Part shown: piece after piece, positions 18,180 to 62,599 of the stretch
Position numbering within the stretch: the first letter of the stretch is position 1
How the letters are laid out: every line of letters begins with the position of its first letter
Assembly (NCBI GenBank): GCA_013362805.1
Contig: JABFVL010000032.1
Location: 22,050 to 86,049, forward strand
Length of the DNA stretch: 64,000 nt
Direction: 5' to 3'
Source of the DNA: Mycobacteriales bacterium
GTDB lineage: Bacteria > Actinomycetota > Actinomycetes > Mycobacteriales > QHCE01
Translations under genes and position numbers: made by a program
The notes under the pieces: model-generated
What the model was told of the DNA's origin: nothing
The model's input: only the letters and a program-made list of their open reading frames with translations
The model's database searches: none

Positions 18180-18662
18180 ATGACTTTCACCGTCGGCGAG
18201 ACCGTTGTGTATCCGCATCACGGGGCCGCACTTATCGAAGCAATAGAAACTCGAATCATTAAAGGCGAAGAGAGGAAATACCTCGTGCTCAGGGTTGCCC
18301 AAGGCGACCTGACGGTACGAGTGCCAGCCGATAACGCCGAAGTAGTGGGCGTTCGTGACGTGGTGGGCCAGGAAGGCTTGGACCGGGTGTTCCAGGTTCT
18401 CCGCGCTCCCCACACCGAAGAGCCCACGAACTGGTCGCGGCGCTATAAAGCCAACCTAGAAAAACTCGCCTCTGGCGACGTTAACAAGGTTGCTGAAGTA
18501 GTGCGCGACTTGTGGCGACGCGATAAAGAACGTGGCCTGTCCGCCGGCGAAAAGCGGATGCTCACCAAAGCCCGGGACATTCTTGTTGGTGAGCTCGCTC
18601 TCGCTGAGGGCACTGGCAAAGAAAATGCTGAAGAAATTCTCGACCAGGTGCTCGCTTCTTGA
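18180..18662 (+). CDS. carD: RNA polymerase-binding transcription factor CarD
   Basis: [35 protein letters not shown]. Confidence 0.97.
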
Positions 18663-19378
18663 GTAAGCACCAAGCCGCATTGATTGTTGTTGCGGCGGGT
18701 AGTGGACAACGCATGGGTGGCGGGGTGCCGAAAGCACTCCGCCACCTTTGTGCTGAGCCGCTTCTCACGCATGCTTTGCGTGAAGCGTTTCGGTCTAATC
18801 GAATCAGTGCGCTTGTGGTGGTGGGGCCTAAGGCTCATCAAGCCGAGATTTACGAGATCGTGTCTGGCCTCAAAGTAGAAACGTCGCTCGAGGCGTTGTG
18901 GACACAGGTTGTTCCTGGCGGTCGCACTCGCACGGAATCGGTGACGGCGGGTCTTGCGGCACTGCGTGAACGAGCGGAAGAACACATTCTTGTTCACGAC
19001 GCCGCTCGGGCGCTTGCCCCCGCTCACCTGTTTGGCGAAGTTATCGATGCGCTCCGCTCAGATGTGGACGCTGTGGTGCCAGCGCTCCCCGTAGTGGACA
19101 CAATCAAGCAGGTGGACAGCAATGGACACGTGATGGGCACTGTGGATCGAAATCCGTTGCGTGCGATTCAAACCCCCCAGGGATTTACTCGAACCATGCT
19201 GGAAAGGGTCCATGCTTGTGCGGTTGAGACAACCGACGATGCGGCCCTAGTCGAAAAGCTCGGTGGCATAGTCGTATGCGTGTCCGGCAGTGAATTGGCG
19301 CGCAAAGTTACTACCCCGGCCGATATGGCGATCGCTGAGGCGCTGTTGAATCTGCCAGCGGAAGCGCGTGAGCGTTAA
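18659..19378 (+). CDS. ispD: 2-C-methyl-D-erythritol 4-phosphate cytidylyltransferase
   Basis: [24 protein letters not shown]. Confidence 0.94.
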
Positions 19379-27669: not shown

Positions 27670-28680
27670 ATGACGGTCACAACGGTGGCGAGCATCGCGG
27701 CGCGCCTGGGCATATCGCGCACCACGGTGTCCAACGCGTTCAGTCGACCGGACCAGCTTTCCTCGCATTTGCGACAAGAAATTCTGTGTGCGGCCCAAGC
27801 TCTGGGTTATCCGGGGCCAGATCCGTTAGCCCAGTCGCTGCGCAGGGGAAACAGTTCATATGTTGCCCTGCTTTTCGGTGAGGAGTTGGCGACCTCCCTC
27901 CTCACCTCAGCTGCGCAGCGACTGCTCGCAAGCGTGGCGGCGGCGAGTGAGCAACACTGGGGCGGTTTGCTCCTCGCTTCCGCCGCGGCATGCCGCCCCC
28001 GGCGTGCCGCCGGACCCACCGGCCGAGCCTCGCAACCTACGGCCGGTGGGCTCATCGCATACTCGGTTCCTGAACAGGCAACCGGTGGGTTCGTTCGTTC
28101 ACCAGGCAAACGTGTCTTGATCGGTGGTCCACCGCCGACAAATCCGGAGATTGCCTGGGTTCAATTTGATCTAGCTTTGGGTGCACACGCCTTAGGGCGC
28201 CATTTGGTCGAGCTTGGGCACCGCTCGGTGCACATGGTGCGCACCCCTGTGTTCTCGGCGTCCTTCGGTTGGCCCGAGCCAGCAGAAGCCATGGGCGAGC
28301 ACATCTTCGATGGGTTCTCGCAAGGTCTCGGGGCAGCCCTGTCGCACACATACGACTTGTGTGCGGTTCCCACGCGGAAACAATGCGTTGAGCTACTAGG
28401 CACTGCGGAGAACGCAACCGCGATCGCGTGCGATAACGATGCCACCGCACTTGCCCTGCACGCCATCGCAAAGCAACTCGGCATCAAGATCCCAGAACAG
28501 CTGAGCATCGTCGGCGTGGGTGATGTGCCCGCTGCCCGCCTTGCCGGGCTCACTACGATTTCTGAACCGTGCGCATCCGCGGGTCACACAGCTTTGGCAC
28601 TTCTGGCGGAGGGAGGGCGATGCGTTTTGCCCGCTGAAGTGATGATGAGAGATAGCACTGGTCCAGCGCATAGTCGATGA
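27670..28680 (+). CDS. LacI-family transcriptional regulator (Rv3575c-like)
   Basis: IAARLGISRTTVSNAFSRPDQLS, LGYPGPDP, IPEQLSIVGVGD, RDST. Confidence 0.88.
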   Translation: MTVTTVASIAARLGISRTTVSNAFSRPDQLSSHLRQEILCAAQALGYPGPDPLAQSLRRGNSSYVALLFGEELATSLLTSAAQRLLASVAAASEQHWGGLLLASAAACRPRRAAGPTGRASQPTAGGLIAYSVPEQATGGFVRSPGKRVLIGGPPPTNPEIAWVQFDLALGAHALGRHLVELGHRSVHMVRTPVFSASFGWPEPAEAMGEHIFDGFSQGLGAALSHTYDLCAVPTRKQCVELLGTAENATAIACDNDATALALHAIAKQLGIKIPEQLSIVGVGDVPAARLAGLTTISEPCASAGHTALALLAEGGRCVLPAEVMMRDSTGPAHSR

Positions 28681-28735: not shown

Positions 28736-28808
28736 GCCGACGTGGCGCAATTGGTAGCGCACCCGACTTGTAATCGGAAGGTTAGGGGTTCAAGTCCCCT
28801 CGTCGGCT
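28736..28808 (+). tRNA. tRNA-Thr(TGT)
   Basis: Acceptor stem GCCGACG/CGTCGGC, D-loop TTGGTA, anticodon loop CTTGTAA, T-loop GGTTCAAGTCC; CCA not encoded. Confidence 0.96.
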
Positions 28809-32322: not shown

Positions 32323-32538
32323 ATGAGTGGCGCAGTGGCTGCTGGCACTGTTAAGTGGTTCAACTCGGAAAAAGGTTACGGTTTCATCGCGGTGGACGGT
32401 GGTTCGGACGTTTTCGTGCACTTCTCCGCGATCCAGATGGATGGGTATAAGTCCCTCGAAGACGGCCAGCGTGTCGAATTCGATGTTACCCAGGGCCCCA
32501 AAGGCCCCCAGGCGGACGCGGTTCGTTTGTCAGCCTAA
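32323..32538 (+). CDS. cspA: cold-shock protein
   Basis: [23 protein letters not shown]. Confidence 0.95.
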
Positions 32539-32551
32539 GCACCCAAGCGCA

Positions 32552-32585
32552 TCAGGGGCGGTCCCAAAAAAGGGGCCGTCCCTGA
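32552..32585 (+). terminator. hairpin after the csp gene
   Basis: TCAGGGGCGGTCCC...GGGGCCGTCCCTGA. Confidence 0.65.
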
Positions 32586-32606
32586 CGTGTGTCTTACCAC
32601 CCCGCG

Positions 32607-32667
32607 CTTGCACTCGTGAGGTGAGAGTGCTAAACCTGAGCTAGCACTCGGCTGTATAGAGTGCTAG
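32607..32667. promoter_or_regulatory. two tandem CIRCE (HrcA) operators
   Basis: CTTGCACTC-N9-GAGTGCTAA (32607-32633) and CTAGCACTC-N9-GAGTGCTAG (32641-32667). Confidence 0.95.
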
Positions 32668-34404
<1,737 letters not shown>

Positions 34405-34420
34405 GTCCAAGCAAATTCAG

Positions 34421-34453
34421 TTAAGGGGCGGACCCATAGGGTCCGCCCCTTAA
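34421..34453 (+). terminator. intrinsic terminator after groEL
   Basis: TTAAGGGGCGGACCC-ata-GGGTCCGCCCCTTAA. Confidence 0.88.
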
Positions 34454-34572
34454 TGCATACATCCTCTACTGTGGTGACTAGCTCACGATACGTACGAGTA
34501 GGGAAAGGAATGGCGCAAAGGACTTAGTGCGAGTGCGTGACACCCGTTCATGCGCCATATACGGTCAAAGTC

Positions 34573-35559
34573 ATGGAATCCTCACCAAATACCGGTCTAA
34601 GTGGTCGGTTAGGTGATCGCGTAGATCAACCAAAGTTCAACCGCCTCGCGGTGCCACCTTTCGCTGCGCTCACCGCCGCCGCACTCACCATTTTGCAGCC
34701 GCTATTAGCGCGAATTTTCGGCATTGCTGCTTGGAGTGGCTCATTCACGCAAAAACCCGAAGGCACCTGGCACATCGGTCTCACGATGATGGTTTGGTAC
34801 ACCGCGGTAGCCGTCATGGGCGGAGCGCTGCTCGCGCGCCACATCACCCAACGCACCAGCGTGCGCTGCGCGGAATTTTGTAAAGCGGCACTGTGGGCGG
34901 CCGCCGGAGCGCTCTTCGCATTCCCCGTTATCGCCGCACTGGCTAGCGGGGCGGACGTGCCACACGTAACCTGGCCGGGCTTGAGCATGGCCGCGAGTGT
35001 TCCGATAGGAGCGGTTCTTGGCGTTGCCGCCACATGGCTGGCCATTCACTACAGCGCCGTGCGTATTGGAGTGGGAATCAGCGTCGCCTGGGTGTGGCTA
35101 CTCGGATTCGTTTCTGTGGTGATGAGCTGGGGCGACGACGTGCGTCAGAGCGTTCCATTAGGCGCCGCCACCGTGGGTGGTCCTCCCAAGGACGCCGCTC
35201 CAATTGACCACACGCTGCACGAAAGCACGGTCAGCATACTGAAAATGGTCTCGATAGCAGGCCCGATTCTCATCGCGTGCGCACTGTTGTGGTGGGCGCG
35301 CCAAAATGCTCGCTCCGTGTCAGAAGCGATCACCGCCGGGCTAGCTGGGCCACTATTTATCCTTGCCTCGTACCTCGTCCGTCCCAATGCGCTCGATGGC
35401 GCGAATCTTGATTGGTTTCAGTTTTCGCTCCGAATCGTGGGGTTGGCGCTATTGGCCGCCGCTGCGACCTGGGTGATCGCTGTGGTGTGGTGGAGCCGAA
35501 AATTGTCATCGGAAGGGCCGAGTCCGTTGTTGAACATCAAAATCGCGGAAAAGCGTTAA
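34573..35559 (+). CDS. polytopic membrane protein of unknown function
   Basis: About 8 hydrophobic segments. Confidence 0.65.
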   Translation: MESSPNTGLSGRLGDRVDQPKFNRLAVPPFAALTAAALTILQPLLARIFGIAAWSGSFTQKPEGTWHIGLTMMVWYTAVAVMGGALLARHITQRTSVRCAEFCKAALWAAAGALFAFPVIAALASGADVPHVTWPGLSMAASVPIGAVLGVAATWLAIHYSAVRIGVGISVAWVWLLGFVSVVMSWGDDVRQSVPLGAATVGGPPKDAAPIDHTLHESTVSILKMVSIAGPILIACALLWWARQNARSVSEAITAGLAGPLFILASYLVRPNALDGANLDWFQFSLRIVGLALLAAAATWVIAVVWWSRKLSSEGPSPLLNIKIAEKR

Positions 35560-38779: not shown

Positions 38780-40435
38780 TTATTCGAATTGCGGCAGTTC
38801 AGGTCCCAAAAGATCATCTGCGTCCACAATTCGATAGGCGTAACCCTGTTCCGCTAGAAACCGTTGTCGGTGTGCCGCGAAGTCAGCGTCCAAGGTGTCT
38901 CGAGCTACCACAGTGTAGAAATGGGCCTGTCGACCATCGCCTTTCGGGCGCAAAACTCGACCAAGCCGCTGAGCTTCTTCTTGCCGCGAGCCGAAAGTGC
39001 CGGATACCTGAATAGCTACCGCGGCCTCTGGCAAATCAATAGAGAAGTTCGCCACTTTAGAGACCACCAGAACATCCACTTCGCCGTTCCGGAATGCGTC
39101 GTACAGCTTCTCGCGCTCTTTATTACTAGTTGAACCTTGAATAATTGGCGCGTTCAAATGGTCACCGAGCTGTTCAAGCTGTTCCAAATAGCCACCGATT
39201 ACTAGAATTTGCTCACCTTTGTGCTGTTCAATGAGCGCCTCTACAACCGGCAACTTTGTTCGGACAGTCGCGCATTTGCGGTAACGCTCATCCGGTTCGG
39301 CCATCGCATAATCCATGCGCTCGGCGTCAGTCAGTGTTACCCGGACTTCGGTGCAGTTCGCTGGTGCGATCCAGCCTTGCGCCTCAATTTCCTTCCAGGG
39401 CGCGTCGAAACGCTTAGGCCCGATAAGTGAAAAAACGTCGCCTTCACGTTCGTCTTCGCGGACCAGCGTCGCGGTCAAACCCAACCGGCGTCGAGACTGC
39501 AAATCGGCAGTGAATCTGAAAACCGGAGCGGGCAGCAAATGCACCTCGTCGTAAATGACCAAGCCCCAGTCTCGAGCGCCGAACAACTCCAGGTTGCGAT
39601 ATTCGCCTTTACGGCGCGACGTCATAACCTGATATGTCGCGATAGTGACGGGGCGAATCTCTTTACGTTCGCCGGAGTATTCACCGATTTCATCCTCGGT
39701 CAATGAGGTGCGCGCCAACAACTCGCGCCGCCATTGGCGCCCAGCCACTGTGTTCGTTACCAAAATGAGCGTTGTGGCCTGTGCGTGTGCCATCGCGGCC
39801 GCGCCCACCAATGTCTTGCCGGCGCCGCACGGCAGCACGACAACACCAGAACCTCCAGCCCAGAAACCATCAGCTGCCTGTTGCTGGTACGGACGCAATT
39901 CCCATCCGTCCTGGCGCAGCGAGATGGGGTGCGCTTCGCCATCGACGTAGCCTGCGAGGTCTTCAGCGGGCCAGCCCAGCTTAAGCAGGGCCTGCTTAAG
40001 GCGGCCGCGCTCACTTGGGTGAACCGCGATGGTGTCCTCATCGAGGCGAGTGCCGAGCATGCCAGACAGTTTCTTGGACTTGGCGACCTCCACCAATACC
40101 GCTCGATCGCTTGCCCGCAACACCAGCCCATGGGCTGGATGGTTGGCGAGCTGAAGTCGCCCATAGCGATCCATCGTCTCGGCGATGTCAACGAGCAACG
40201 CGTGCGGGACCGGATAGCGCGAATATTTGATCAGTGTGTCGACAACCTGTTCGGCATCATGTCCTGCCGCACGTGCGTTCCACAATCCAAGCGGTGTCAC
40301 CCGGTAGGTATGCACATGTTCCGGCGCGCGTTCCAGCTCAGCGAATGGAGCAATAGCCAATCGGGCGGCTGGTGAATCGGGATGGTCGATTTCCAGCAGC
40401 AGGGTTTTGTCGGACTGCACGATCAAGCAAGACAT
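38780..40435 (-). CDS. DNA repair helicase XPB
   Basis: LIVQSDKTLLLE, LPCGAGKT, DEVH, LGLTAT, QRLGR. Confidence 0.95.
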   Translation of the reverse strand: MSCLIVQSDKTLLLEIDHPDSPAARLAIAPFAELERAPEHVHTYRVTPLGLWNARAAGHDAEQVVDTLIKYSRYPVPHALLVDIAETMDRYGRLQLANHPAHGLVLRASDRAVLVEVAKSKKLSGMLGTRLDEDTIAVHPSERGRLKQALLKLGWPAEDLAGYVDGEAHPISLRQDGWELRPYQQQAADGFWAGGSGVVVLPCGAGKTLVGAAAMAHAQATTLILVTNTVAGRQWRRELLARTSLTEDEIGEYSGERKEIRPVTIATYQVMTSRRKGEYRNLELFGARDWGLVIYDEVHLLPAPVFRFTADLQSRRRLGLTATLVREDEREGDVFSLIGPKRFDAPWKEIEAQGWIAPANCTEVRVTLTDAERMDYAMAEPDERYRKCATVRTKLPVVEALIEQHKGEQILVIGGYLEQLEQLGDHLNAPIIQGSTSNKEREKLYDAFRNGEVDVLVVSKVANFSIDLPEAAVAIQVSGTFGSRQEEAQRLGRVLRPKGDGRQAHFYTVVARDTLDADFAAHRQRFLAEQGYAYRIVDADDLLGPELPQFE

Positions 40436-40468
40436 CCCACTAAGACTACCTACTATCCGACGCCGCAA

Positions 40469-42463
40469 CTATCCTGCGTGAGCTCGCGCGAAAGTGAGTC
40501 GGTGCAGCTGAAAAGTGTGCGCGCTCTCCGCGCGTGGGTCTTCGGCTCGCAAAAAGCCGCCACCGACCGAAATCGCGCGCACGGTGCGGGAACGTACTTC
40601 GCCGTGTGGATCCAGGTAACCAATGTCCACCATTTGTTTATCGCCGGCGGCATGAGTCAGAAGTGACAGGATTTCTTCCATAGATTGTGGTCTTGGCGCG
40701 CTCTCTGGTTTCGCGTGAACTGCCGCGTCAGCGCGTCGTAGCAGGGGCAGGGCCGCCCGAATGCTCTTTTCATCTAGCACGGTGGGGGCGCTGGGCTGCC
40801 AGTGTTGCCGCGCTCCGGTGCGTCGTTCTTCCTTGGGCGCAACAACCAAAGAACCCGTGGTGTCTTCCAACGCCAATGGGTATCCGGCGTCGGTGATCAG
40901 GGCGCTGATGCGATGTGCCGCTAGTGGGCTTACCGCCACGGTAGGCGCGAGAAGCCTGAGTTGTAGTGGTGACAATGTGCGATCCGCGATGAGTGAAGCG
41001 AGCAGAGTGGTGTCTTCGCTGCGCAGGTAGCTGCCGACTGCGCCAAGCCTGAGCCCGCCGTGTCGTCTGGCGACGTCGTCAATCAAGTACGTCAAGTTCT
41101 GCGGGATTGGTGTGCGAGATCTTTGGGCGAATAGTTTATGAAGTTCGGCGGCTGTTTTGCCACTTCGTAGTCCTCGGGCCAAGCTTTCGGCGCTCACCCG
41201 GAACACGAGGGCTCCTCCGCTGGATTCTTGGTCGGCCACCAGTGTCATGTCGCTGGCTAGGTCGGATGTGAGCGGTCCGGGAGCGATGATGGTGAGGTCG
41301 GCTTGAACGAGGATGTAGTCGATGGGTGGCGGTAGAACCTTGTCTAGTTCGCGTGCGGCAGCCTCGGGCTCGTCGTGATACAGAAGTCTTCCGTATTCGG
41401 TTAGAGCACCGCGTCCGGTGATTCCGAGACTTTCGGCCTCTCTCAGAATCGCTTCGATCGCGTGGGCACGTGATGGGCTGGCGGCGCGCGCATATCGCCA
41501 ATCCAGCTGTTCGATCACTTCGGTGGGTGTGAGCGATTCTCCGGCTGGACGTTGGGCGAGTATTTCTAGCACTTGTCGACGTAGGGCTGGGGCCGCGCGG
41601 CGGGTGATTTCTGGGCTTAGCGCGGCGATTCTGCGATCGTTTTCGTCCCGGGTTCCGGCCAAATGTGGCAGGCGTGGGGCATTGAGCCATGCATTGGCGA
41701 GAGTTCGCCATTGGATGGGGGCTGGACTCGCGTTCCACACATCGAATTGGGCGGTTGGCAGCCATTCGCCGGGCCGTTCGGCCGTGGTTTCCAGTAGTCC
41801 GGAGCTGTGGCTGATGTCGAGCAATAGCGCGGTGTGTGTTTCGGATTGTTGAAGTGTCTGGGCGAGTTGACGTTGGTCTTTGAGCGCGATTCCGCCGCTG
41901 CGTAGGTTTGCTGGCCCGTTGTCCGCGCAGAAGTTGAGCACGCCTTCGACGCTGCGTAGGACATCTAGTGCGGCAGCGGCGCCGGTGCTTTCGACATTGG
42001 TGTGGATTTTTGCCTGAACCGTGGGCGGTTTGGGGTGAAATTGTGGTGGCGATTCAGGTGGTCCCAGAACTTCGGCGAGCCCCGCCGTGACGTGAATCAT
42101 GTTTTCGAATTCCCATGCCAACGCTCGTTCGCTCAGGGCTTCAAGAGCGGATTCGGCGTCGGCACCGGTTTTGCTGGTGAGTTCAGTCTTGCGATGTGTG
42201 GTTCGTGCGACAGCGAGGATCTCCAGTTCAAAGCGGGTGAGCTGGTGGATCGTGCGCGTCAGCGAGCTCGGGCTGGCAGCGCGGGACGCTAGAGCTGGAA
42301 AGTCGCCTGGCAGGGGTATGGCGAGGTCGGGCCTGATACGCAGCAGCGAGAGTAGTTTTTCATCGTCTAGCGCCCGAAGATGCTGCGCGAGATCGTGGCC
42401 GCGAGTTTTTTCCGCTAGTTTCGCCGATGGTTCGTTAGCGGATTGAGGCGTGCTAGTGCTCAT
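40469..42463 (-). CDS. XPB-associated helicase-C3 / WYL-like protein (Rv0862c-like)
   Basis: LRIRPDL, VQADLTIIAPGPL, PQNLTYLIDDVARRHG; C-terminal WYL-like segment. Confidence 0.85.
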   Translation of the reverse strand: MSTSTPQSANEPSAKLAEKTRGHDLAQHLRALDDEKLLSLLRIRPDLAIPLPGDFPALASRAASPSSLTRTIHQLTRFELEILAVARTTHRKTELTSKTGADAESALEALSERALAWEFENMIHVTAGLAEVLGPPESPPQFHPKPPTVQAKIHTNVESTGAAAALDVLRSVEGVLNFCADNGPANLRSGGIALKDQRQLAQTLQQSETHTALLLDISHSSGLLETTAERPGEWLPTAQFDVWNASPAPIQWRTLANAWLNAPRLPHLAGTRDENDRRIAALSPEITRRAAPALRRQVLEILAQRPAGESLTPTEVIEQLDWRYARAASPSRAHAIEAILREAESLGITGRGALTEYGRLLYHDEPEAAARELDKVLPPPIDYILVQADLTIIAPGPLTSDLASDMTLVADQESSGGALVFRVSAESLARGLRSGKTAAELHKLFAQRSRTPIPQNLTYLIDDVARRHGGLRLGAVGSYLRSEDTTLLASLIADRTLSPLQLRLLAPTVAVSPLAAHRISALITDAGYPLALEDTTGSLVVAPKEERRTGARQHWQPSAPTVLDEKSIRAALPLLRRADAAVHAKPESAPRPQSMEEILSLLTHAAGDKQMVDIGYLDPHGEVRSRTVRAISVGGGFLRAEDPRAESAHTFQLHRLTFARAHAG

Positions 42464-42815: not shown

Positions 42816-43682
42816 ATGGTGAACATGTCGAGCCCTATGGCAGCCCGGCGTCGTTTGGGCGTCGAGCTGCGTCGGATGCGAGAGACGGCGGGATTTTCGG
42901 GCGAGCAAGCCGCGGCTGGCTTCGGGTGGTCGCAAGCGAAGATCTCTCGCATGGAGAGCGCGGTCACTCGCCCCACGGTCCGAGATGTCCGGGATCTTCT
43001 GGAGTTTTATCAGGCTGACCCCGTGCTGCGGGATGAACTTTTGACGTTGGCTGCCGTAGCGGCCACTCGTAGCTCGGCGTGGTGGAATGACTACGCCGGC
43101 GCGATTTCGGTGCGGAGCCGACAACGGATCGCGTTGGAAGCCGATGCCTCCACCATTTTGCATTTGGCGGTTAGCGTTATTCCCGGCTTGTTGCAAACAG
43201 CTGAATACGCCAGGGAAATTTTTAGTTGTACAGGGGTGGAGGAAACTCGCCGAAATATTGACCTGGGAGTGGCGGCACGGGCCACCCGCAAAGAATTCGT
43301 AATGCGTCAACCACCCAATTTTCCGGTGGTTATTACTGACGGTGCTTTGCGTTGGCGCCCAGGTAGCGGTGAGGTACAGCGGAACCAACTGCGGTCCTTG
43401 TTGGAGGAAGCCGCGACTACACCGACACTGTCCATTCGGGTATTGCCGCAGTATCCACGGGATGGCATGTTGCCCCTTTCAGATTTTATGATCTACAAGT
43501 TCGCTGATCCGGATGTGCCGGTTGTGGCATATGTGGAAACCCCTACTGGACACACCGAAATAGAAAAAAGAACAGATATTGAGTTCTACGAGGATTCATT
43601 CAACGCCTTACTCAATTTGACTTTAGCGGAAGATGAATCTCTCGAATACATTCAGGAATTGGTGGACAATATCGAAAGGTAA
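42816..43682 (+). CDS. XRE HTH + DUF5753 regulator (WhiJ/Scr1-like)
   Basis: RRRLGVELRRMRE, WSQAKISRME, IPGLLQTAEYA, VAYVET. Confidence 0.92.
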   Translation: MVNMSSPMAARRRLGVELRRMRETAGFSGEQAAAGFGWSQAKISRMESAVTRPTVRDVRDLLEFYQADPVLRDELLTLAAVAATRSSAWWNDYAGAISVRSRQRIALEADASTILHLAVSVIPGLLQTAEYAREIFSCTGVEETRRNIDLGVAARATRKEFVMRQPPNFPVVITDGALRWRPGSGEVQRNQLRSLLEEAATTPTLSIRVLPQYPRDGMLPLSDFMIYKFADPDVPVVAYVETPTGHTEIEKRTDIEFYEDSFNALLNLTLAEDESLEYIQELVDNIER

Positions 43683-43714
43683 ATTGTTTCCGGCATAGCG
43701 AGGAGAGAGCAGCA

Positions 43715-43903
43715 ATGATTGACGTCAAACTGCACCCTGCAATTTGGCGGACGTCGAGCCGGTGTACGGAGGGTAGTAATTGCGTAGCGGTAGCGGCATC
43801 GTCGCAGGAGGTTGCCGTACGCGATACCAAGGCTCAGACGACTCCAGAGCTTTCTTTTTCTATCAATAGTTGGCGCTGTTTCGTGGAGGCAATCGCTCGC
43901 TAA
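43715..43903 (+). CDS. DUF397 domain protein
   Basis: WRTSSRC...NCVAVA...VAVRDTK...W..FV. Confidence 0.92.
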   Translation: MIDVKLHPAIWRTSSRCTEGSNCVAVAASSQEVAVRDTKAQTTPELSFSINSWRCFVEAIAR

Positions 43904-43921
43904 CACATGCGAGATGTTGTG

Positions 43922-43970
43922 AAAGTGGCCTGATCCAACACCCGATCGGTATTGGATCAGGCCACTTTTT
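43922..43970 (+). terminator. intrinsic terminator
   Basis: AAAGTGGCCTGATCCAA...TTGGATCAGGCCACTTTTT. Confidence 0.9.
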
Positions 43971-44189
43971 GGTGAATATAAACAATTAGCTCTGCTTTAA
44001 TTACACAGTGTGCTGAATTTGGCATGATCTCGCCAAGTTGGCAACAATTTCTGACAAACATTGTGTAAAACAAACAATGTGGACTGTCTATTTAGGCTAA
44101 TAGTGAGTTGATCCGCAAATTTGGCATCGGGGTAGACAATTGATTCATGCCCCGCGCATAATGCATGTAGCGTGATCACCATCACACGC

Positions 44190-44445
44190 TTCCCGTAACC
44201 GGTGCCCTCCGGTTGTGGGAGTGGGCTCGGGACTCTAGCCGGAAGTCCCTCCAAGCACAGTGGATTGTGGACTCCCAGCCACGTTCCACCGCTTGGCCGG
44301 CGTTGTCACGAGCACGGTCGCTTGCTGTCCCATCAAGACCCGGTCCCCAATCGATGGCTTGCACCGCACGGTTCGGGCCCGACGTTGCTGAACTAGTCAC
44401 GTCGGGCCGCTCCGCACCACGATCGTAATCCCGAACGATCGGAGC
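44190..44445 (+). ncRNA. putative multi-hairpin structured RNA or leader
   Basis: About 7 adjacent stem-loops (see findings); candidate -10 TAGCGT at 44168-44173. Confidence 0.55.
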
Positions 44446-44454
44446 TGAGACTTA

Positions 44455-45060
44455 ATGCTTGCCCGCAGTTACCGCCTCAAACGAGCCGCTCTCCATTACG
44501 CCGCACATGGCTGGCCAGTCGCCCCGGCCATCAACTACGCGCGTAAAAGTTGGCCCCGCTCTCCACTCACTTGCGCTTGTGTCAAAGCAAAAGAATGCGC
44601 GCAGCCTGGGGCCCACCCCCTGGATTCAGACTGGCAAGACACCATCACCACCGATAGCGCGCAAATCCAGCGCTGGTGGTCAACCCAAAGCAGCCCTAAC
44701 GTTCTCCTCGCGCCAGGAGAAGCCTTCGAAGCGTGGCTCGCGCCGCCTGTTCTTGGTGAACAAGCCGCGGCGATGCTGGCTCAAGACAGAATCATGGTCC
44801 CAGTCGTGCGGTCCGCTGACGGCAGCTGGATTTTTCTTACTCAGCCGGCGGCAGCGAATGCGAGCTTGAGCCATATCGGCGTTCAGCGCCTGACCGCGGG
44901 CAGTTATCTGGCCGCTCCGCCCTCGTGGCATGGAGCGGGACGTAGCGACCGATGGATCGCGCATCCCGAAGTCGACGCATTGTGTGCGTGGGAGCCGGTG
45001 GCCCTCTTGCTTCTTGAGGCCGCGCGTCGCACCAGCCCACGGCCTGACGTCGGCAACTAG
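44455..45060 (+). CDS. bifunctional primase/polymerase (Prim-Pol) family protein, probably catalytically degenerate
   Basis: AALHYAAHGWPV.P, CAC-x4-C-x2-PGAHP, TTD..QI.RWW, PNV, YLAAPPS. Confidence 0.85.
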   Translation: MLARSYRLKRAALHYAAHGWPVAPAINYARKSWPRSPLTCACVKAKECAQPGAHPLDSDWQDTITTDSAQIQRWWSTQSSPNVLLAPGEAFEAWLAPPVLGEQAAAMLAQDRIMVPVVRSADGSWIFLTQPAAANASLSHIGVQRLTAGSYLAAPPSWHGAGRSDRWIAHPEVDALCAWEPVALLLLEAARRTSPRPDVGN

Positions 45061-45175
45061 CCGCGCATTAGTGATACTCAGTTGGCGCCAGCGCGTCGGA
45101 TCGCTAGCCTAGAGGAGTTGCCGTCACAGCTCGTGGCGGCGCGTCCATGTATGTAGCTGAGAAGAGGGCAGTACG

Positions 45176-45568
45176 GTGCCGAGTGGCCGGGTGAAGTGGT
45201 ACGACGTCGAAAAAGGGTTTGGGTTTCTTTCCCGTGACGACGGGCCGGATGTCTTCGTGCACAAGGGTGCTTTGCCTAACAATGTGAGCGAGCTTGCGCC
45301 AGGCACCCGGGTGGAGTTTGGCATCGTTGCCGGTCGCAAGGGCGATCAAGCACTGTCAGTGCGAGTGCTGGATCCTTTGCCCTCACTGGCGGCAGCCGCC
45401 GCACCACGTCGATCCGCCGACGAGCTTCACGGGCTCGTTGAGGACATGATCAAGGTGTTGGAAGCCAAGGTGCAACCCGATCTACGGAAGGGTCGCTACC
45501 CGGACCGTCGTTCCGCGCGAAAGATCGCCGAATTGGTACATGCCGTCGCGCGCGAGCTTGAGGCCTAA
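45176..45568 (+). CDS. cold-shock domain protein (CspB-like)
   Basis: [23 protein letters not shown]-terminal helical extension. Confidence 0.92.
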
Positions 45569-50307: not shown

Positions 50308-50955
50308 GTGGTTGCCCTCGTCATTCCTGTCGGGCATTTCGCCGGCCCGATGTTTACCTCTCCTGAGGCGGAAGCCCCAGAGTCCTTCGAAATTCGGTTC
50401 CGCGACGGCGTCTTCTCGCTTAGCGCTCAAGAATATGCCGTGTGGGCAGTCGCGCACGGCGACCCAGAAAAAGTGGGCCAACGCAGCCAAAGCCGTACCG
50501 TGGTCGAAGCCGCCGCCAAAGATGCCGGCGTCGATGACCCAGGTCCGATCTTCGACTCGCTCGTCAACGATGGCCTGCTCACCCAAGTCATGCCAAAAGG
50601 TGAGGCCGCTCGTGAATTCGCGCGTAACCACCAGATCATGCCGCTAGCCCTTGGTTTGGGTAACACGCCACAACAGCTCGGCGCGTTCCAGATCGGCATG
50701 CCGAACTCCGCACGTGCCACCGTCGGCTACGACGTTTACCACATGTGGTTGTTCTGTCACCGCGAAGAAAACTTGTGGAAGGCGGTCACCACGATCGCCA
50801 AAGAAGCCGAGGAAGCTAACGCTGAAGAAGCCGCCTCTGATCGGGACGACAAGATTGAACTCATCTCAGATCCAGATGTTCTACTCACCGGACTTCTGGA
50901 AGCGATGCCAGTTCTCATCTCAACGAGCTGTGTATATATTGACCGGCGGTCATAA
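50308..50955 (+). CDS. hypothetical protein, paralog of 47617-48231
   Basis: AGGAGG RBS; motifs shared with the paralog. Confidence 0.82.
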   Translation: MVALVIPVGHFAGPMFTSPEAEAPESFEIRFRDGVFSLSAQEYAVWAVAHGDPEKVGQRSQSRTVVEAAAKDAGVDDPGPIFDSLVNDGLLTQVMPKGEAAREFARNHQIMPLALGLGNTPQQLGAFQIGMPNSARATVGYDVYHMWLFCHREENLWKAVTTIAKEAEEANAEEAASDRDDKIELISDPDVLLTGLLEAMPVLISTSCVYIDRRS

Positions 50956-50971
50956 AACCCAGTGAAACTGC

Positions 50972-51009
50972 ACAATGCCCGCTTGGAAGACTTTCCAAGC
51001 GGGCATTGT
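50972..51009 (+). terminator. intrinsic terminator
   Basis: ACAATGCCCGCTTGGAA...TTCCAAGCGGGCATTGT. Confidence 0.85.
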
Positions 51010-51084
51010 TATGTATCTCGCTTTGATAAATCTAGTTCCATAAAAAAGCAGAATCACCCCCTTCGGCATGGCAGGCTGTTATCT

Positions 51085-51879
51085 GTGAGTGACATGTTTG
51101 GCGACGTACAGCAACTACTTGCTGATCGCGTGGCTATCGAACTCGACCCGAGCTGGTCCATCGGCGGTGCTTTGACCGCTGGATACTTGCAATCCCTCTC
51201 AGCTGAAGCGGGGCTGCGAACGAGCCAACATCCGCACCCGATTGCCACAACCACAGATTTTCTTCAACCGGCGAGTCCAGGCCCGGCCACATTTAGCGTG
51301 GAACTATTAAAGAGCGGCAAAACGCTAGACCGGCTTCGCGTCACCATGATTCAAGACGATGAACCGGTGCTGATCACCTCGCTCGTTACCAGCGTTATTG
51401 ACGAATCTCCGTCAGACGTCGATATGTCGCGCCCCATCGAGCTGCCACCACCAGACCGATGCACCCGCATCGAGAGCACAACATTGCGCGATCGCCACCT
51501 AGGTGTGCTTGACCACGTCGATCTGCGATTGGCTCCTGAGTGCATTAGCGTTTTGCGAGGCGGTGCCGACGGTAGCTTTACCATTCGCGGGTGGGTCAAT
51601 ATGGCTGACGGCCGGGACTTTGACACGCCAACCCTGATCCGCATCCTCGACGCGTTTCCGCCAGCGACCTACACGATCGGTCGCTTTGGCTGGGCACCCA
51701 CCATTCAGCGCACTACCTATCTGCGGAACTTGCCCACCCAAGGTTGGCTACGGGCCGAGCGCTGCGGGCGAGTACTCGCTGGCGATGTGCTCGATGAAGA
51801 GTGCATCATGCGAGATTCCGCTGGCGTAGTGATCGCCCAAACCCATCAACTCATAAAGATGCCGCGCAAGATGAAATAG
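51085..51879 (+). CDS. hotdog-fold acyl-CoA thioesterase family protein
   Basis: W..GG....GY, HP.A....FL, DAFPP, WAPTI, DEEC..RDS.G..IAQ. Confidence 0.85.
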   Translation: MSDMFGDVQQLLADRVAIELDPSWSIGGALTAGYLQSLSAEAGLRTSQHPHPIATTTDFLQPASPGPATFSVELLKSGKTLDRLRVTMIQDDEPVLITSLVTSVIDESPSDVDMSRPIELPPPDRCTRIESTTLRDRHLGVLDHVDLRLAPECISVLRGGADGSFTIRGWVNMADGRDFDTPTLIRILDAFPPATYTIGRFGWAPTIQRTTYLRNLPTQGWLRAERCGRVLAGDVLDEECIMRDSAGVVIAQTHQLIKMPRKMK

Positions 51880-60625: not shown

Positions 60626-62599
60626 CTAGTAGCCGATCCAGGTGCCGGGCTGGTCAAGGTGCTCGGTGTCATTGGCCATCAAGCCTTCGCGAGACACCGT
60701 CCACAATGTGTCCCCAATGATGAGCGACCGGGTGATTTCATTCCCATATTGATCGCCCGCGGGGTGTTGGATCTTGGTGATTTCACGAAGTGATTCCTTG
60801 TCGACCTTCAACACAATTACCCCGGTGTCCAGCTGTGACGCGACTTCGCCATCCTGCGTGGTTGTCGCGCTTCCGGAGTTCATATAGGGCACCGCGAGAA
60901 GACCAGTTTTTTCCCAATATAGAAAGGCGTGGGGATCGTATTCAGCGGTGGAACTCGCATCAGTGATGTGGTACTGATCGAGGCGATTTGGTGTGGCGGG
61001 ATCACTGATGTCAAACAGTGACACCTGCAGACCTTGGCGTTGTCCTTGTTCGGACGCTTCCTGCCCAACTCCGAGCAAGGTGTTTTCGCTGGCTGGATGC
61101 AGGTAGGCCGAATATCCGGTGATTTTTAGTTCTCCACGCACCGTCGGTGCAGTGGGGGTGCTCAAATCGACGACATAGAGCGGGTCGGTTTGTCGGAACG
61201 TCACAACATATCCAGCATCGCCGATGAATCGCACCGCATAGATCTGTTCGGTTTTACCCAGGCCCCCCACTTGGCCGACGATATTGAGGCTGTTTCCATC
61301 GCGTTTGAGGACATACACCGCTGACTCTGATGGTGGTTCTTGGTCGCAACAGGTGACGCTGCCGACCACATTGGTGGTGGCGATGCGTAGGTGCCCTTCA
61401 TGTTCTGACATTGAATACTGGTTCAGCAGCATTCCTGGCACGCTGCCCGATGCGATGTGTTTTGGTTGTTCATCGCCCGAGATGTCGAAGGCGTAGAGCT
61501 CGGTGCTGAGCGTTTGTTCATCTATTTCGGCGCCGGGTTCGGGTTCGAACGTTTGATAGTTTTCCCCGGCGATGTACAGAGTCGTGGCACTGGAATACAC
61601 AGTGGATCCATCAGCGGCGATGGTGACAGGGTCGGTCTTGCTGATGGTGTCGAAGCCAAGGGTGAATACGGTCAACATGTTTGAGCCGCTGTAGTCGGCG
61701 GCATGGCTGACGTTGCCACATGGGGTTTGTCTTGATTCGGTTTTCCCGTTTTCTTCGACTTGAAAACGGGGAAGCCATGTTTCGATGCTCGAGGCGTTGA
61801 TAACTTCGCGGTTTTGCTCGATGGCTCTTTTTTCGCCTCGGGTTCCGCTGGCTTCGGGTGCGTCTTGGGGGAAGTCAAGGCGCGGGCCGGAGCTGCTGAC
61901 GAGCCGAACGGTGTCATCGATTTGTCGGGCGTCAATATATGAGCCTTCGATGCTGACCGACGAAAGCACCGTGGGGGATTCGTCGAGTTCTACAAGTAGG
62001 ACTTTCGAGCCGTTCTGGCCACCGCCGGGTGCGATTTTCGCGTTGCTTTGCGCGGGTTCGGCGAGCGTGATGACGCCTTGCATCACCACCAGCGCGCGAT
62101 CACCGGAGACCATGAGCTGGTTGGGGGTGAGTCCAGTTTCTTGGTCTGATAGGTCAATGCTGCCGATGATGCTGCGCGCTTTGGCATCGATGATTCGCAG
62201 TGTTCCGTCGCTGAGGGTGTAAATGCGTTTGCCGTCGTTTTTAACGGCGTCGGGTTCATCGATGCCACTTTCTTGGTTATTCGTGGTGGAGTGCTCGTCG
62301 GCGCTTTCCGGGCTTGGAGCGGTTGGCGCGGTGCTTTTCATATCTGAGCTGGCGCTGTCTTCTTGGGTGGTGAGCGCACGGCTGTTTGAGTTGGGCAATC
62401 CGTATGGCCCGACGGCGTCGCTGGCCGCTTTTTGTAGCCCGGTGAGTGCTTGGTCGCAACTGTCGAAGCTCGCCAACATGATGGTGGGTTGTTGACTGTG
62501 CGTGTACCTGGTTTGTTGACCGCAGGCACCGATGGTGAGTGCGACGCAACTTGCCGCCGCTATCGTGAGGACCCGACGCCGGGCTGAATGTGCGCTCAT
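60626..62599 (-). CDS. secreted beta-propeller-domain lipoprotein
   Basis: STTNNQESGIDEPD.VK.DG, LLNQYSMSE, IYAVRF, VTFRQTDPL, GELKITGYS.YLHP. Confidence 0.9.
   Translation of the reverse strand: MSAHSARRRVLTIAAASCVALTIGACGQQTRYTHSQQPTIMLASFDSCDQALTGLQKAASDAVGPYGLPNSNSRALTTQEDSASSDMKSTAPTAPSPESADEHSTTNNQESGIDEPDAVKNDGKRIYTLSDGTLRIIDAKARSIIGSIDLSDQETGLTPNQLMVSGDRALVVMQGVITLAEPAQSNAKIAPGGGQNGSKVLLVELDESPTVLSSVSIEGSYIDARQIDDTVRLVSSSGPRLDFPQDAPEASGTRGEKRAIEQNREVINASSIETWLPRFQVEENGKTESRQTPCGNVSHAADYSGSNMLTVFTLGFDTISKTDPVTIAADGSTVYSSATTLYIAGENYQTFEPEPGAEIDEQTLSTELYAFDISGDEQPKHIASGSVPGMLLNQYSMSEHEGHLRIATTNVVGSVTCCDQEPPSESAVYVLKRDGNSLNIVGQVGGLGKTEQIYAVRFIGDAGYVVTFRQTDPLYVVDLSTPTAPTVRGELKITGYSAYLHPASENTLLGVGQEASEQGQRQGLQVSLFDISDPATPNRLDQYHITDASSTAEYDPHAFLYWEKTGLLAVPYMNSGSATTTQDGEVASQLDTGVIVLKVDKESLREITKIQHPAGDQYGNEITRSLIIGDTLWTVSREGLMANDTEHLDQPGTWIGY

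Follow-up and report, generated by a model that had tools for sequence, protein, structure and literature searches.

Cold-shock proteins (Csp) melt RNA, and C-rich hairpin loops are carried by several small RNAs (sRNAs), of which 6C is actinobacterial and RsaE and RoxS are firmicute. Translational riboswitches and other leaders that sequester the Shine-Dalgarno (S-D) sequence bury the ribosome-binding site of the gene that follows in a hairpin. The Escherichia coli cspA mRNA has been described as a cis-acting thermosensor aided by CspA (PMC9947658, PMC6386945). We analysed a 64,000-nt stretch of contig JABFVL010000032.1 from a Mycobacteriales bacterium (hereafter 'the window'), in which positions 44169-44454 separate a promoter from a gene for a stand-alone Prim-Pol-fold protein, itself followed by a csp gene. 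We propose that 44169-44454 is a lineage-specific, cis-acting, structured 5′ leader that hides the ribosome-binding site of the Prim-Pol gene, a reading that we hold with about even confidence. The features on which it rests are as follows, all on the + strand.

44133-44162, + strand: sigma-70-type promoter TAGACA-N18-CATAAT, with its -10 region in GCGCATAATGCATG
44169-44190, + strand: H0, 5′-terminal hairpin AGCGUG/CACGCU
44190-44221, + strand: H1, 13-bp stem with three G-U pairs and loop UGCCCU (inverted repeat I4)
44230-44249, + strand: H2, 6-bp stem GGGACU/AGUCCC
44251-44296, + strand: H3, three nested, stacked stems with loop ACUCCCAG
44297-44372, + strand: C-rich linker of 76 nt (28 C and 21 G), the site proposed for H4 and H5
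44376-44408, + strand: H6, G+C-rich stem of 10 perfect pairs closing a loop of 13 nt, without a U tract behind it (inverted repeat I5)
44409-44445, + strand: H7, GCUCC/GGAGC plus CGAUCGU/ACGAUCG, with loop AAUCCCGA
44455-45060, + strand: stand-alone Prim-Pol-fold protein of 201 aa (PF09250, E 8.2e-19)
45061-45175, + strand: spacer forming the proximal 5′ untranslated region (UTR) of csp
45176-45568, + strand: csp, cold-shock-domain protein of 130 aa (PF00313, E 3.6e-17)

Like the 5′ UTRs of cspA-type cold-shock genes, the element is a long, structured, untranslated leader behind a csp promoter, with a Csp chaperone on what is probably the same transcript. Unlike them, it has a Prim-Pol-fold gene rather than csp as its first gene, resembles the relatives' csp UTRs neither in sequence nor by model comparison, and has a predicted S-D pairing that is constant from 10 to 45 °C. 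Its arrangement of a 5′ domain (H1-H3), a linker and an S-D-burying hairpin, with H2 bistable in the model, resembles that of translational riboswitches, although it has no known aptamer, conserved family, ligand candidate or downstream metabolic gene. With 6C and the C-rich-loop sRNAs it shares CCC-displaying hairpin loops in an actinobacterium; however, it matches no Rfam model, is about three times as long as 6C, and runs directly into an S-D sequence and a coding sequence. We conclude that the leader opens no new RNA class; it is confined to one lineage and is similar to ordinary S-D-sequestering leaders.

Structure and coding state of the leader

A sequence-only reading of the window had drawn attention to this stretch, predicting that it would fold better than shuffled controls and preferentially as + strand RNA. 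Both predictions held when 44180-44460 was compared with 200 dinucleotide shuffles: the + strand RNA folds to -124.2 kcal/mol (z -4.06) and none of the 200 shuffles does as well, whereas 7 of 200 do so for the - strand (z -1.99). Measured from the inferred start to the ATG, z is -4.86 on the + strand and -2.31 on the - strand. Folded as DNA, the same region is beyond chance on both strands (z -3.62 for + and -2.97 for -). Given the G-U pairs and the strand asymmetry of the RNA folds, we favour an element that acts as RNA over one that acts as DNA. We also compared the leader with real sequence, using 280-nt windows across the 64 kb with minimum free energy regressed on base composition; the + strand, which is 34% C in the leader, ranks 9th of 910 strand-windows at -2.9 standard deviations (sd), and the - strand 146th.

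To individual hairpins we applied the same 200 dinucleotide shuffles, with segments cut around the hairpins post hoc, so that these z values are flattering. H1 (-19.4 kcal/mol, z -4.66), H3 (-23.6 kcal/mol, z -4.91) and H6, the most stable hairpin (-24.3 kcal/mol, z -4.86), are each matched by none of the 200 shuffles; H7 (-13.3 kcal/mol, z -3.01) is matched by one, as is H0 (-6.4 kcal/mol, z -3.51), which the sequence-only reading had not listed and which spans the first 22 nt from the start inferred from the promoter. H2 is weaker (-10.1 kcal/mol, z -2.08, 8/200) and is rivalled in both the minimum free energy and centroid folds by a long-range helix between GCCGG (44238-44242) and CCGGC (44297-44301); with a mean unpaired probability of about 0.5 at 10-37 °C, it is bistable in the model. 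The linker has no structure beyond chance (z +1.25, 176 of 200 shuffles fold as well). In the model, then, H0, H1, H3 and H6 would be the stable modules, and of the array of about seven hairpins originally described, H1, H2, H3, H6 and H7 stand while H4 and H5 do not. By the same token, the CCC said to be displayed by four hairpins is present in the loops of H1, H3 and H7, and the fourth, H5, is an unsupported hairpin. The H3 loop is complementary to UGGGAGU (44216-44222) in the 3′ arm of H1, which could be chance. The sequence directly after H6 is GCUCCGCACC.

The 3′ arm of H7 contains the S-D sequence of the Prim-Pol gene, GGAG at 44441-44444, 10 nt before the ATG at 44455. Sequestration of this S-D by H7, as first suggested, is borne out by the predicted fold, in which GGAG is paired with probability 0.99 at 10-37 °C; its unpaired probability is 0.01 over that range, 0.02 at 45 °C and 0.04 at 55 °C. 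In a -200 to +45 context the S-D is unpaired with probability 0.08, and the accessibility of the translation start, 0.28, is among the lowest of 19 genes.

The leader is non-coding. Open reading frames (ORFs) within it have flat GC contents at the first, second and third codon positions (0.66/0.62/0.65 and 0.61/0.68/0.61), whereas nine real genes follow a pattern of first > third > second, with the second position lowest; no Pfam family was found on four such ORFs, and a TGA at 44446-44448 closes the Prim-Pol frame upstream. A reading of the leader as a small ORF was ruled out by this codon-position pattern and the lack of Pfam matches. The earlier description of the stretch as non-coding, + strand-biased, unusually structured and placed behind a promoter is thus upheld.

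Covariance models of Rfam 15 likewise agree with the earlier judgement that this is neither 6C nor a known riboswitch. At gathering thresholds, the whole window yielded only a tRNA at 28736-28808, and at E up to 10 the region 43900-44600 yielded, within the leader, only an S15-leader match on the - strand (14.8 bits, gathering threshold 39.5). ARAGORN and Tandem Repeats Finder called no tRNA-like gene and no tandem repeat. By BLAST the leader is single-copy in its own genome, and at E < 0.1 the 3.05-Mb assembly yields no further copy of any hairpin, which argues against a repetitive extragenic palindromic-like or mobile repeat; no homologue of the leader was found in 40 relatives. Within 44169-44454 no terminator-like site was called, so that an intrinsic terminator or attenuator is not indicated. 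A Rho utilization (rut) site calls for 70-80 nt of unstructured, C-rich and G-poor RNA. The linker is unstructured, but with a C/G ratio of at most 1.5, which is unremarkable at the 90th percentile of the window, a strong rut site is not indicated.

Promoter, ancestry and selection

The promoter first proposed for the leader, TTCATG-N18-TAGCGT, is displaced by a better-scoring site, TAGACA-N18-CATAAT, with 10 of 12 matches, and the position of this site (44133-44162) places the transcript start near 44169. We compared the syntenic loci of four family relatives (G001, G003, G004 and G005). G005 and G004 read helicase, regulator, (DUF397), csp, DUF3027, an order that G001 shares, there with a gap of 688 nt ahead of csp; the G003 locus has no regulator. 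Csp is 72-77% identical at the syntenic place in all four. The Prim-Pol gene is absent from 4/4 of these loci and was not found anywhere in 5/5 family genomes.

The promoter, by contrast with what follows it, is shared. G001 has the 14-mer GCGCATAATGCATG unchanged, and the core GCATAATGCA recurs at the syntenic site in G001, G005 and G004, with about 135-165 nt between it and csp in the latter two; G005 also shares GGGGTAG at the -35 position. Past the promoter nothing could be aligned to the upstream regions of the relatives' csp genes with MAFFT, and BLAST returned only the 14-nt promoter match. Since the -10 core is shared at the syntenic site, we conclude that the leader and the Prim-Pol gene lie behind the relatives' csp promoter. 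By position, between the csp promoter and csp, the leader is a csp 5′ UTR.

The corresponding slot of the relatives holds elements of its own. In G001 it contains an 85-codon Cys-rich ORF without a Pfam family (L091 4020-4277, - strand); a Prim-Pol remnant in the G001 gap was considered and rejected, with hidden Markov model scores below 1 bit. The csp 5′ UTRs of G005 (L092) and G004 (L093) both start, some 135-165 nt ahead of csp, with a long hairpin that covaries between the two (CCACGG/CCGTGG vs CCACAG/CTGTGG) and keeps a loop containing UCCCGGUUAUUAU. This hairpin is a candidate conserved csp-leader element of the family.

A second organism retains the leader. The sequencing run that holds the stretch is labelled soil metagenome, and we set the stretch against contigs from a different soil metagenome (run X4); runs X2, X3 and X5 leave parts of it uncovered. 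One X4 contig (depth 4.7) covers 43908-44438 with 58 differences and one gap in 531 nt (10.9%), and the promoter-plus-leader stretch is 89% identical. X4 pieces on the Prim-Pol gene differ at 26 of 177 nt (14.7%) and at 37 of 292 nt, and within 44919-45060 22 of the 28 listed differences fall at third codon positions, amounting to 22 of the 48 such positions. As judged from these contigs, the non-coding stretch is at least as well conserved as the coding sequence and far better than near-neutral sites. Given that it is 89% identical while 22 of 48 third codon positions differ, we conclude that the stretch is under purifying selection.

Two further observations were made on the X4 sequence. The csp-proximal spacer (45061-45175) has 4 differences among those listed in 115 nt, which makes it better conserved than the coding sequence beside it. 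Towards the 3′ end of the Prim-Pol gene, X4 (depth 5.3) gains one base behind 45033 and lacks one at 45041, either a short compensated frame change or an assembly error.

The Prim-Pol-fold protein and the surrounding locus

The predicted structure of the 201-aa protein (mean confidence score pLDDT 93.8) has as its best Foldseek matches 9aam, 1ro0 and 1rni, the prim/pol domain of pRN1 ORF904, with probability 1.00 and TM scores of 0.55-0.57. Domain match and fold together place the protein in the PF09250/AEP group. It also has a conserved CxC-x5-C-x5-H motif, presumably equivalent to the zinc stem of ORF904. In PF09250 match, top fold match and Cys/His cluster it therefore resembles ORF904; it departs from it in its catalytic columns and in having no helicase or helix-bundle domain in its 201 aa. 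We located the catalytic columns from the family majority in 84 aligned relatives and take them to be motif I DxD, the motif II His and the motif III Asp. About half of the family carries D, D, H and D at these columns, where L95, P97, I126 and Q144 stand in the window protein. Among the 84 relatives, position 95 is D in 56 and E in 12, position 97 is D in 40, position 126 is H in 43 and position 144 is D in 39.

Changes of the motif I Asp to Leu inactivated a related AEP primase-polymerase (PMC5862659). The window protein is, judging from its residues, most likely a non-catalytic, nucleic-acid-binding descendant of a primase. Its lack of catalytic residues weakens any reading of the leader as a template or primer, and the proposal that the leader serves the protein as a template is not supported, with L, P, I and Q replacing the D, D, H and D of active relatives.

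Such loss is widespread: the second motif I position is P in 37 of 84 relatives, about half of these actinobacterial-type relatives share the catalytic loss, and several genomes carry 3-4 Prim-Pol paralogues. From the alignment, the relatives without catalytic residues look like a large family of pseudo-primases. To our knowledge no function has been assigned to the small Prim-Pol-fold proteins that lack catalytic residues in Actinomycetota, and a literature search found nothing on them.

The leader does not accompany Prim-Pol genes at large. The closest relatives of the protein (P0002-P0004 and P0006) are 51-55% identical, and the close clade is tiny, with only two of 1.84 billion representatives at E < 1e-78 and the next at 2.4e-31. 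Prim-Pol homologues of at most 41% identity occur in 12 of the 40 relatives searched, in varied contexts (UvrD; CofC with a divergent HTH gene; purA). A single-protein search of genome contigs returned no close relative locus, an alignment-based search (A1) returned 64 metagenome and 3 genome loci, all at most 43% identical in the best segment, and plasmid and phage collections gave only matches of at most 33% identity. For 17 Prim-Pol homologues at 28-38% identity (tblastn), folding of the preceding 276 nt gave z values from -1.97 to +1.14, with no structured region. Two covariance models, R1 for the 5′ domain and R2 for H6-H7, were each built from one sequence and are hence weak for diverged homologues; in 87 distant Prim-Pol loci they found nothing at the right place and strand (best 16.1 and 18.1 bits), and R1 had 0 matches in 150 other genomes of the order. 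In 0/87 loci does csp adjoin the Prim-Pol gene, and a WhiJ-like gene is near 5/87. A general tie of the structure to Prim-Pol genes is not supported by these 17 unstructured upstream regions and 87 unmatched loci; conserved structure upstream of homologues, which the sequence-only reading had expected, is missing at the distant ones, in a comparison that did not include the close relatives at 51-55% identity.

The metagenome-assembled genome of this uncultured soil organism is 3.05 Mb in 93 contigs with about 59% G+C. The Pfam families of the window ORFs point to Actinomycetota and mark the neighbourhood of the leader as core chromosome. The features upstream of the promoter are listed below; in addition, GroEL is a core-chromosome neighbour within the window, and a DUF3027 protein follows csp in the gene order of the locus.

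38780-40468, - strand: XPB helicase
40469-42463, - strand: Helicase_C_3 protein
42816-43682, + strand: HTH_31/DUF5753 regulator (PF19054 and PF13560)
43715-43903, + strand: DUF397 (BldB-like) small gene (PF04149, E 7.6e-14), the upstream boundary of the locus
43922-43968, + strand: hairpin of 21 bp with a T run behind it (inverted repeat I1, 95% complementary)
43976-44132: AT-rich spacer containing short repeats, both direct and inverted (ACAAACAWTGTG in two copies, TTGGCA in three, palindrome GCCAAGTTGGC)

The DUF397 gene is the downstream partner of the HTH_31/DUF5753 regulator gene, a pair that we take to be of WhiJ/BldB type and that is kept (42816-43903) next to csp in G001 and G005. The hairpin at 43922-43968 is likely the terminator of the upstream operon. 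Four of the listed X4 differences fall in its 3′ arm (43951 A>G, 43956 A>G, 43959 A>G and 43965 C>T), all of which would keep or improve pairing of the + strand RNA, assuming an unchanged 5′ arm. The AT-rich spacer (GC 0.425 in the 280-nt window starting at 43900) contains two weaker promoter-like sites, and its repeats are possible operator sites. The palindrome GCATNATGC was tried as a genome-wide operator and rejected, with 12 sites found and 17 expected. Downstream, the spacer before csp holds TCGCTAGCCT, which is common to G001 and may be an internal -10 element. Elsewhere in the window, several regions fold as far beyond expectation as the leader or further (-2.9 to -4.0 sd), namely 18280-18840 (+), 27800-28080 (both strands), 32420-32700 (+), 34240-34660 (+), 50900-51180 (both strands) and 61680-61960 (+). 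Two of them flank the GroEL gene, and none matches Rfam at gathering thresholds.

Alternative explanations and a possible mode of action

Several results weigh against a structured, S-D-hiding leader. With GC content as the only covariate, the leader ranks 48th of 455, which is unremarkable, and since the rank drops in this way the folding signal depends on a correction for the C-rich composition of the strand. Low S-D accessibility is not unique, as 2 of 11 other genes with S-D-like sequences have unpaired probabilities of 0.03 or less. Because the predicted S-D pairing does not change between 10 and 45 °C, a simple heat-opened RNA thermometer is not indicated in silico. The leader in the same slot of G001 (213 nt) is unstructured (z -0.79), and z is -2.38 for the csp UTR of G005 and +0.42 for that of G004. 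The X4 contig also spans the terminator and the promoter, so that constraint is not resolved to the hairpins and may act at the DNA level; of its 58 differences, the 7 listed all lie before 43989, upstream of the leader, and the 40 differences listed out of 128 overall include none at 44169-44438. Finally, the sequencing runs that hold the stretch include no RNA run.

Some of these points lend themselves to an explanation in which the hairpins have no function but are incidental to an acquired G+C-rich spacer, with conservation in X4 reflecting recent shared ancestry or DNA-level sites. The middle third of the leader is indeed unstructured, eight other strand-windows of the 64 kb rank higher for structure, and no leader homologue was found outside the X4 organism. 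However, 10.9% divergence over 531 nt beside an adjacent gene with 22 of 48 third codon positions changed is not neutral, 0/200 shuffles equal the fold, and the strand asymmetry favours RNA. We regard this explanation as unlikely.

We give somewhat less credence to a stand-alone sRNA of about 240 nt, running from 44169 to H6, whose C-rich loops (UGCCCU, ACUCCCAG) would act in trans on ribosome-binding sites rich in G, much as in 6C, RsaE and RoxS, with the Prim-Pol gene expressed only by read-through. The CCC-containing loops of H1, H3 and H7, the promoter directly upstream, the conservation in X4 and the stability of H6 would all suit such an RNA. However, H6 is not followed by a U tract, and the leader contains no called terminator-like site; at E up to 10 neither 6C nor another Rfam family was matched, and neither the genome nor the order yielded a further copy or a relative. 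By a rough estimate, it is not unusual at 34% C for three loops of 6-8 nt to contain CCC. That H7 and the S-D sequence adjoin H6 without a gap is better fitted by a leader.

An element acting as DNA is very unlikely. It would be a single- or double-strand origin, either a relic or still working, or else an array of operators, and would have arrived with a plasmid-type Prim-Pol replication gene; the AT-rich repeats at 43976-44132 would be the unwinding and iteron region and the hairpins single-stranded DNA signals. In its favour, AT-rich repeats are succeeded by G+C-rich inverted repeats directly upstream of a Prim-Pol gene, both DNA strands fold beyond chance, and phages and a plasmid carry Prim-Pol relatives with an annotation as replication proteins. 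However, the protein lacks all four catalytic residues and a helicase domain, the locus is core chromosome between the XPB/helicase genes and csp/DUF3027, and no integrase or mobile-element gene turned up among the roughly 30 ORFs scanned at 27.6-56 kb. The -10 core is the family's own csp promoter, and the G-U pairs and the asymmetry of the RNA folds again favour RNA.

Least probable, and in our view highly doubtful, is the original proposal that the leader is the dedicated RNA partner of the zinc-knuckle Prim-Pol-fold protein, in autoregulation or in a ribonucleoprotein, or, put more fully, that leader and non-catalytic protein form an RNA-protein pair co-transcribed with a Csp chaperone: their adjacency, their joint retention in the X4 organism, the CxC-x5-C-x5-H motif and the nucleic-acid-binding AEP fold are in its favour, but no structured region precedes the gene in the 17 homologues, the models matched none of the 87 Prim-Pol loci, and the missing catalytic residues make a template or primer role unlikely. 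What survives of that proposal is a real, selected leader that occludes the S-D sequence in the predicted fold; an RNA-protein machine is improbable.

The S-D-hiding leader would work as follows. The Prim-Pol gene and its leader would have been inserted, in this lineage, between csp and the promoter that drives it in related genera. The mRNA would start at this promoter (44133-44162) and carry, in order, the leader, the Prim-Pol gene and, probably by co-transcription, csp. H7 would bury GGAG and so keep Prim-Pol translation low by default. Candidates for opening H7 are the Csp encoded downstream, a ligand or partner sensed by H1-H3, and co-transcriptional refolding. H0, together with the stable H1, H3 and H6, would probably also shield the RNA from decay.

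Were the RNA-protein pair real after all, an ex-primase would have been re-used as an RNA-binding regulator of the hairpins of its own mRNA, with Csp remodelling the RNA, and this would constitute a new type of pseudo-enzyme/RNA module in Actinomycetota. If, as we favour, the leader controls expression of the gene behind it, the locus would show how a newly inserted gene was put under a cold-shock promoter with a translational lock of its own, and would offer an initial way into the study of the many small Actinomycetota proteins with a Prim-Pol fold but no catalytic residues.

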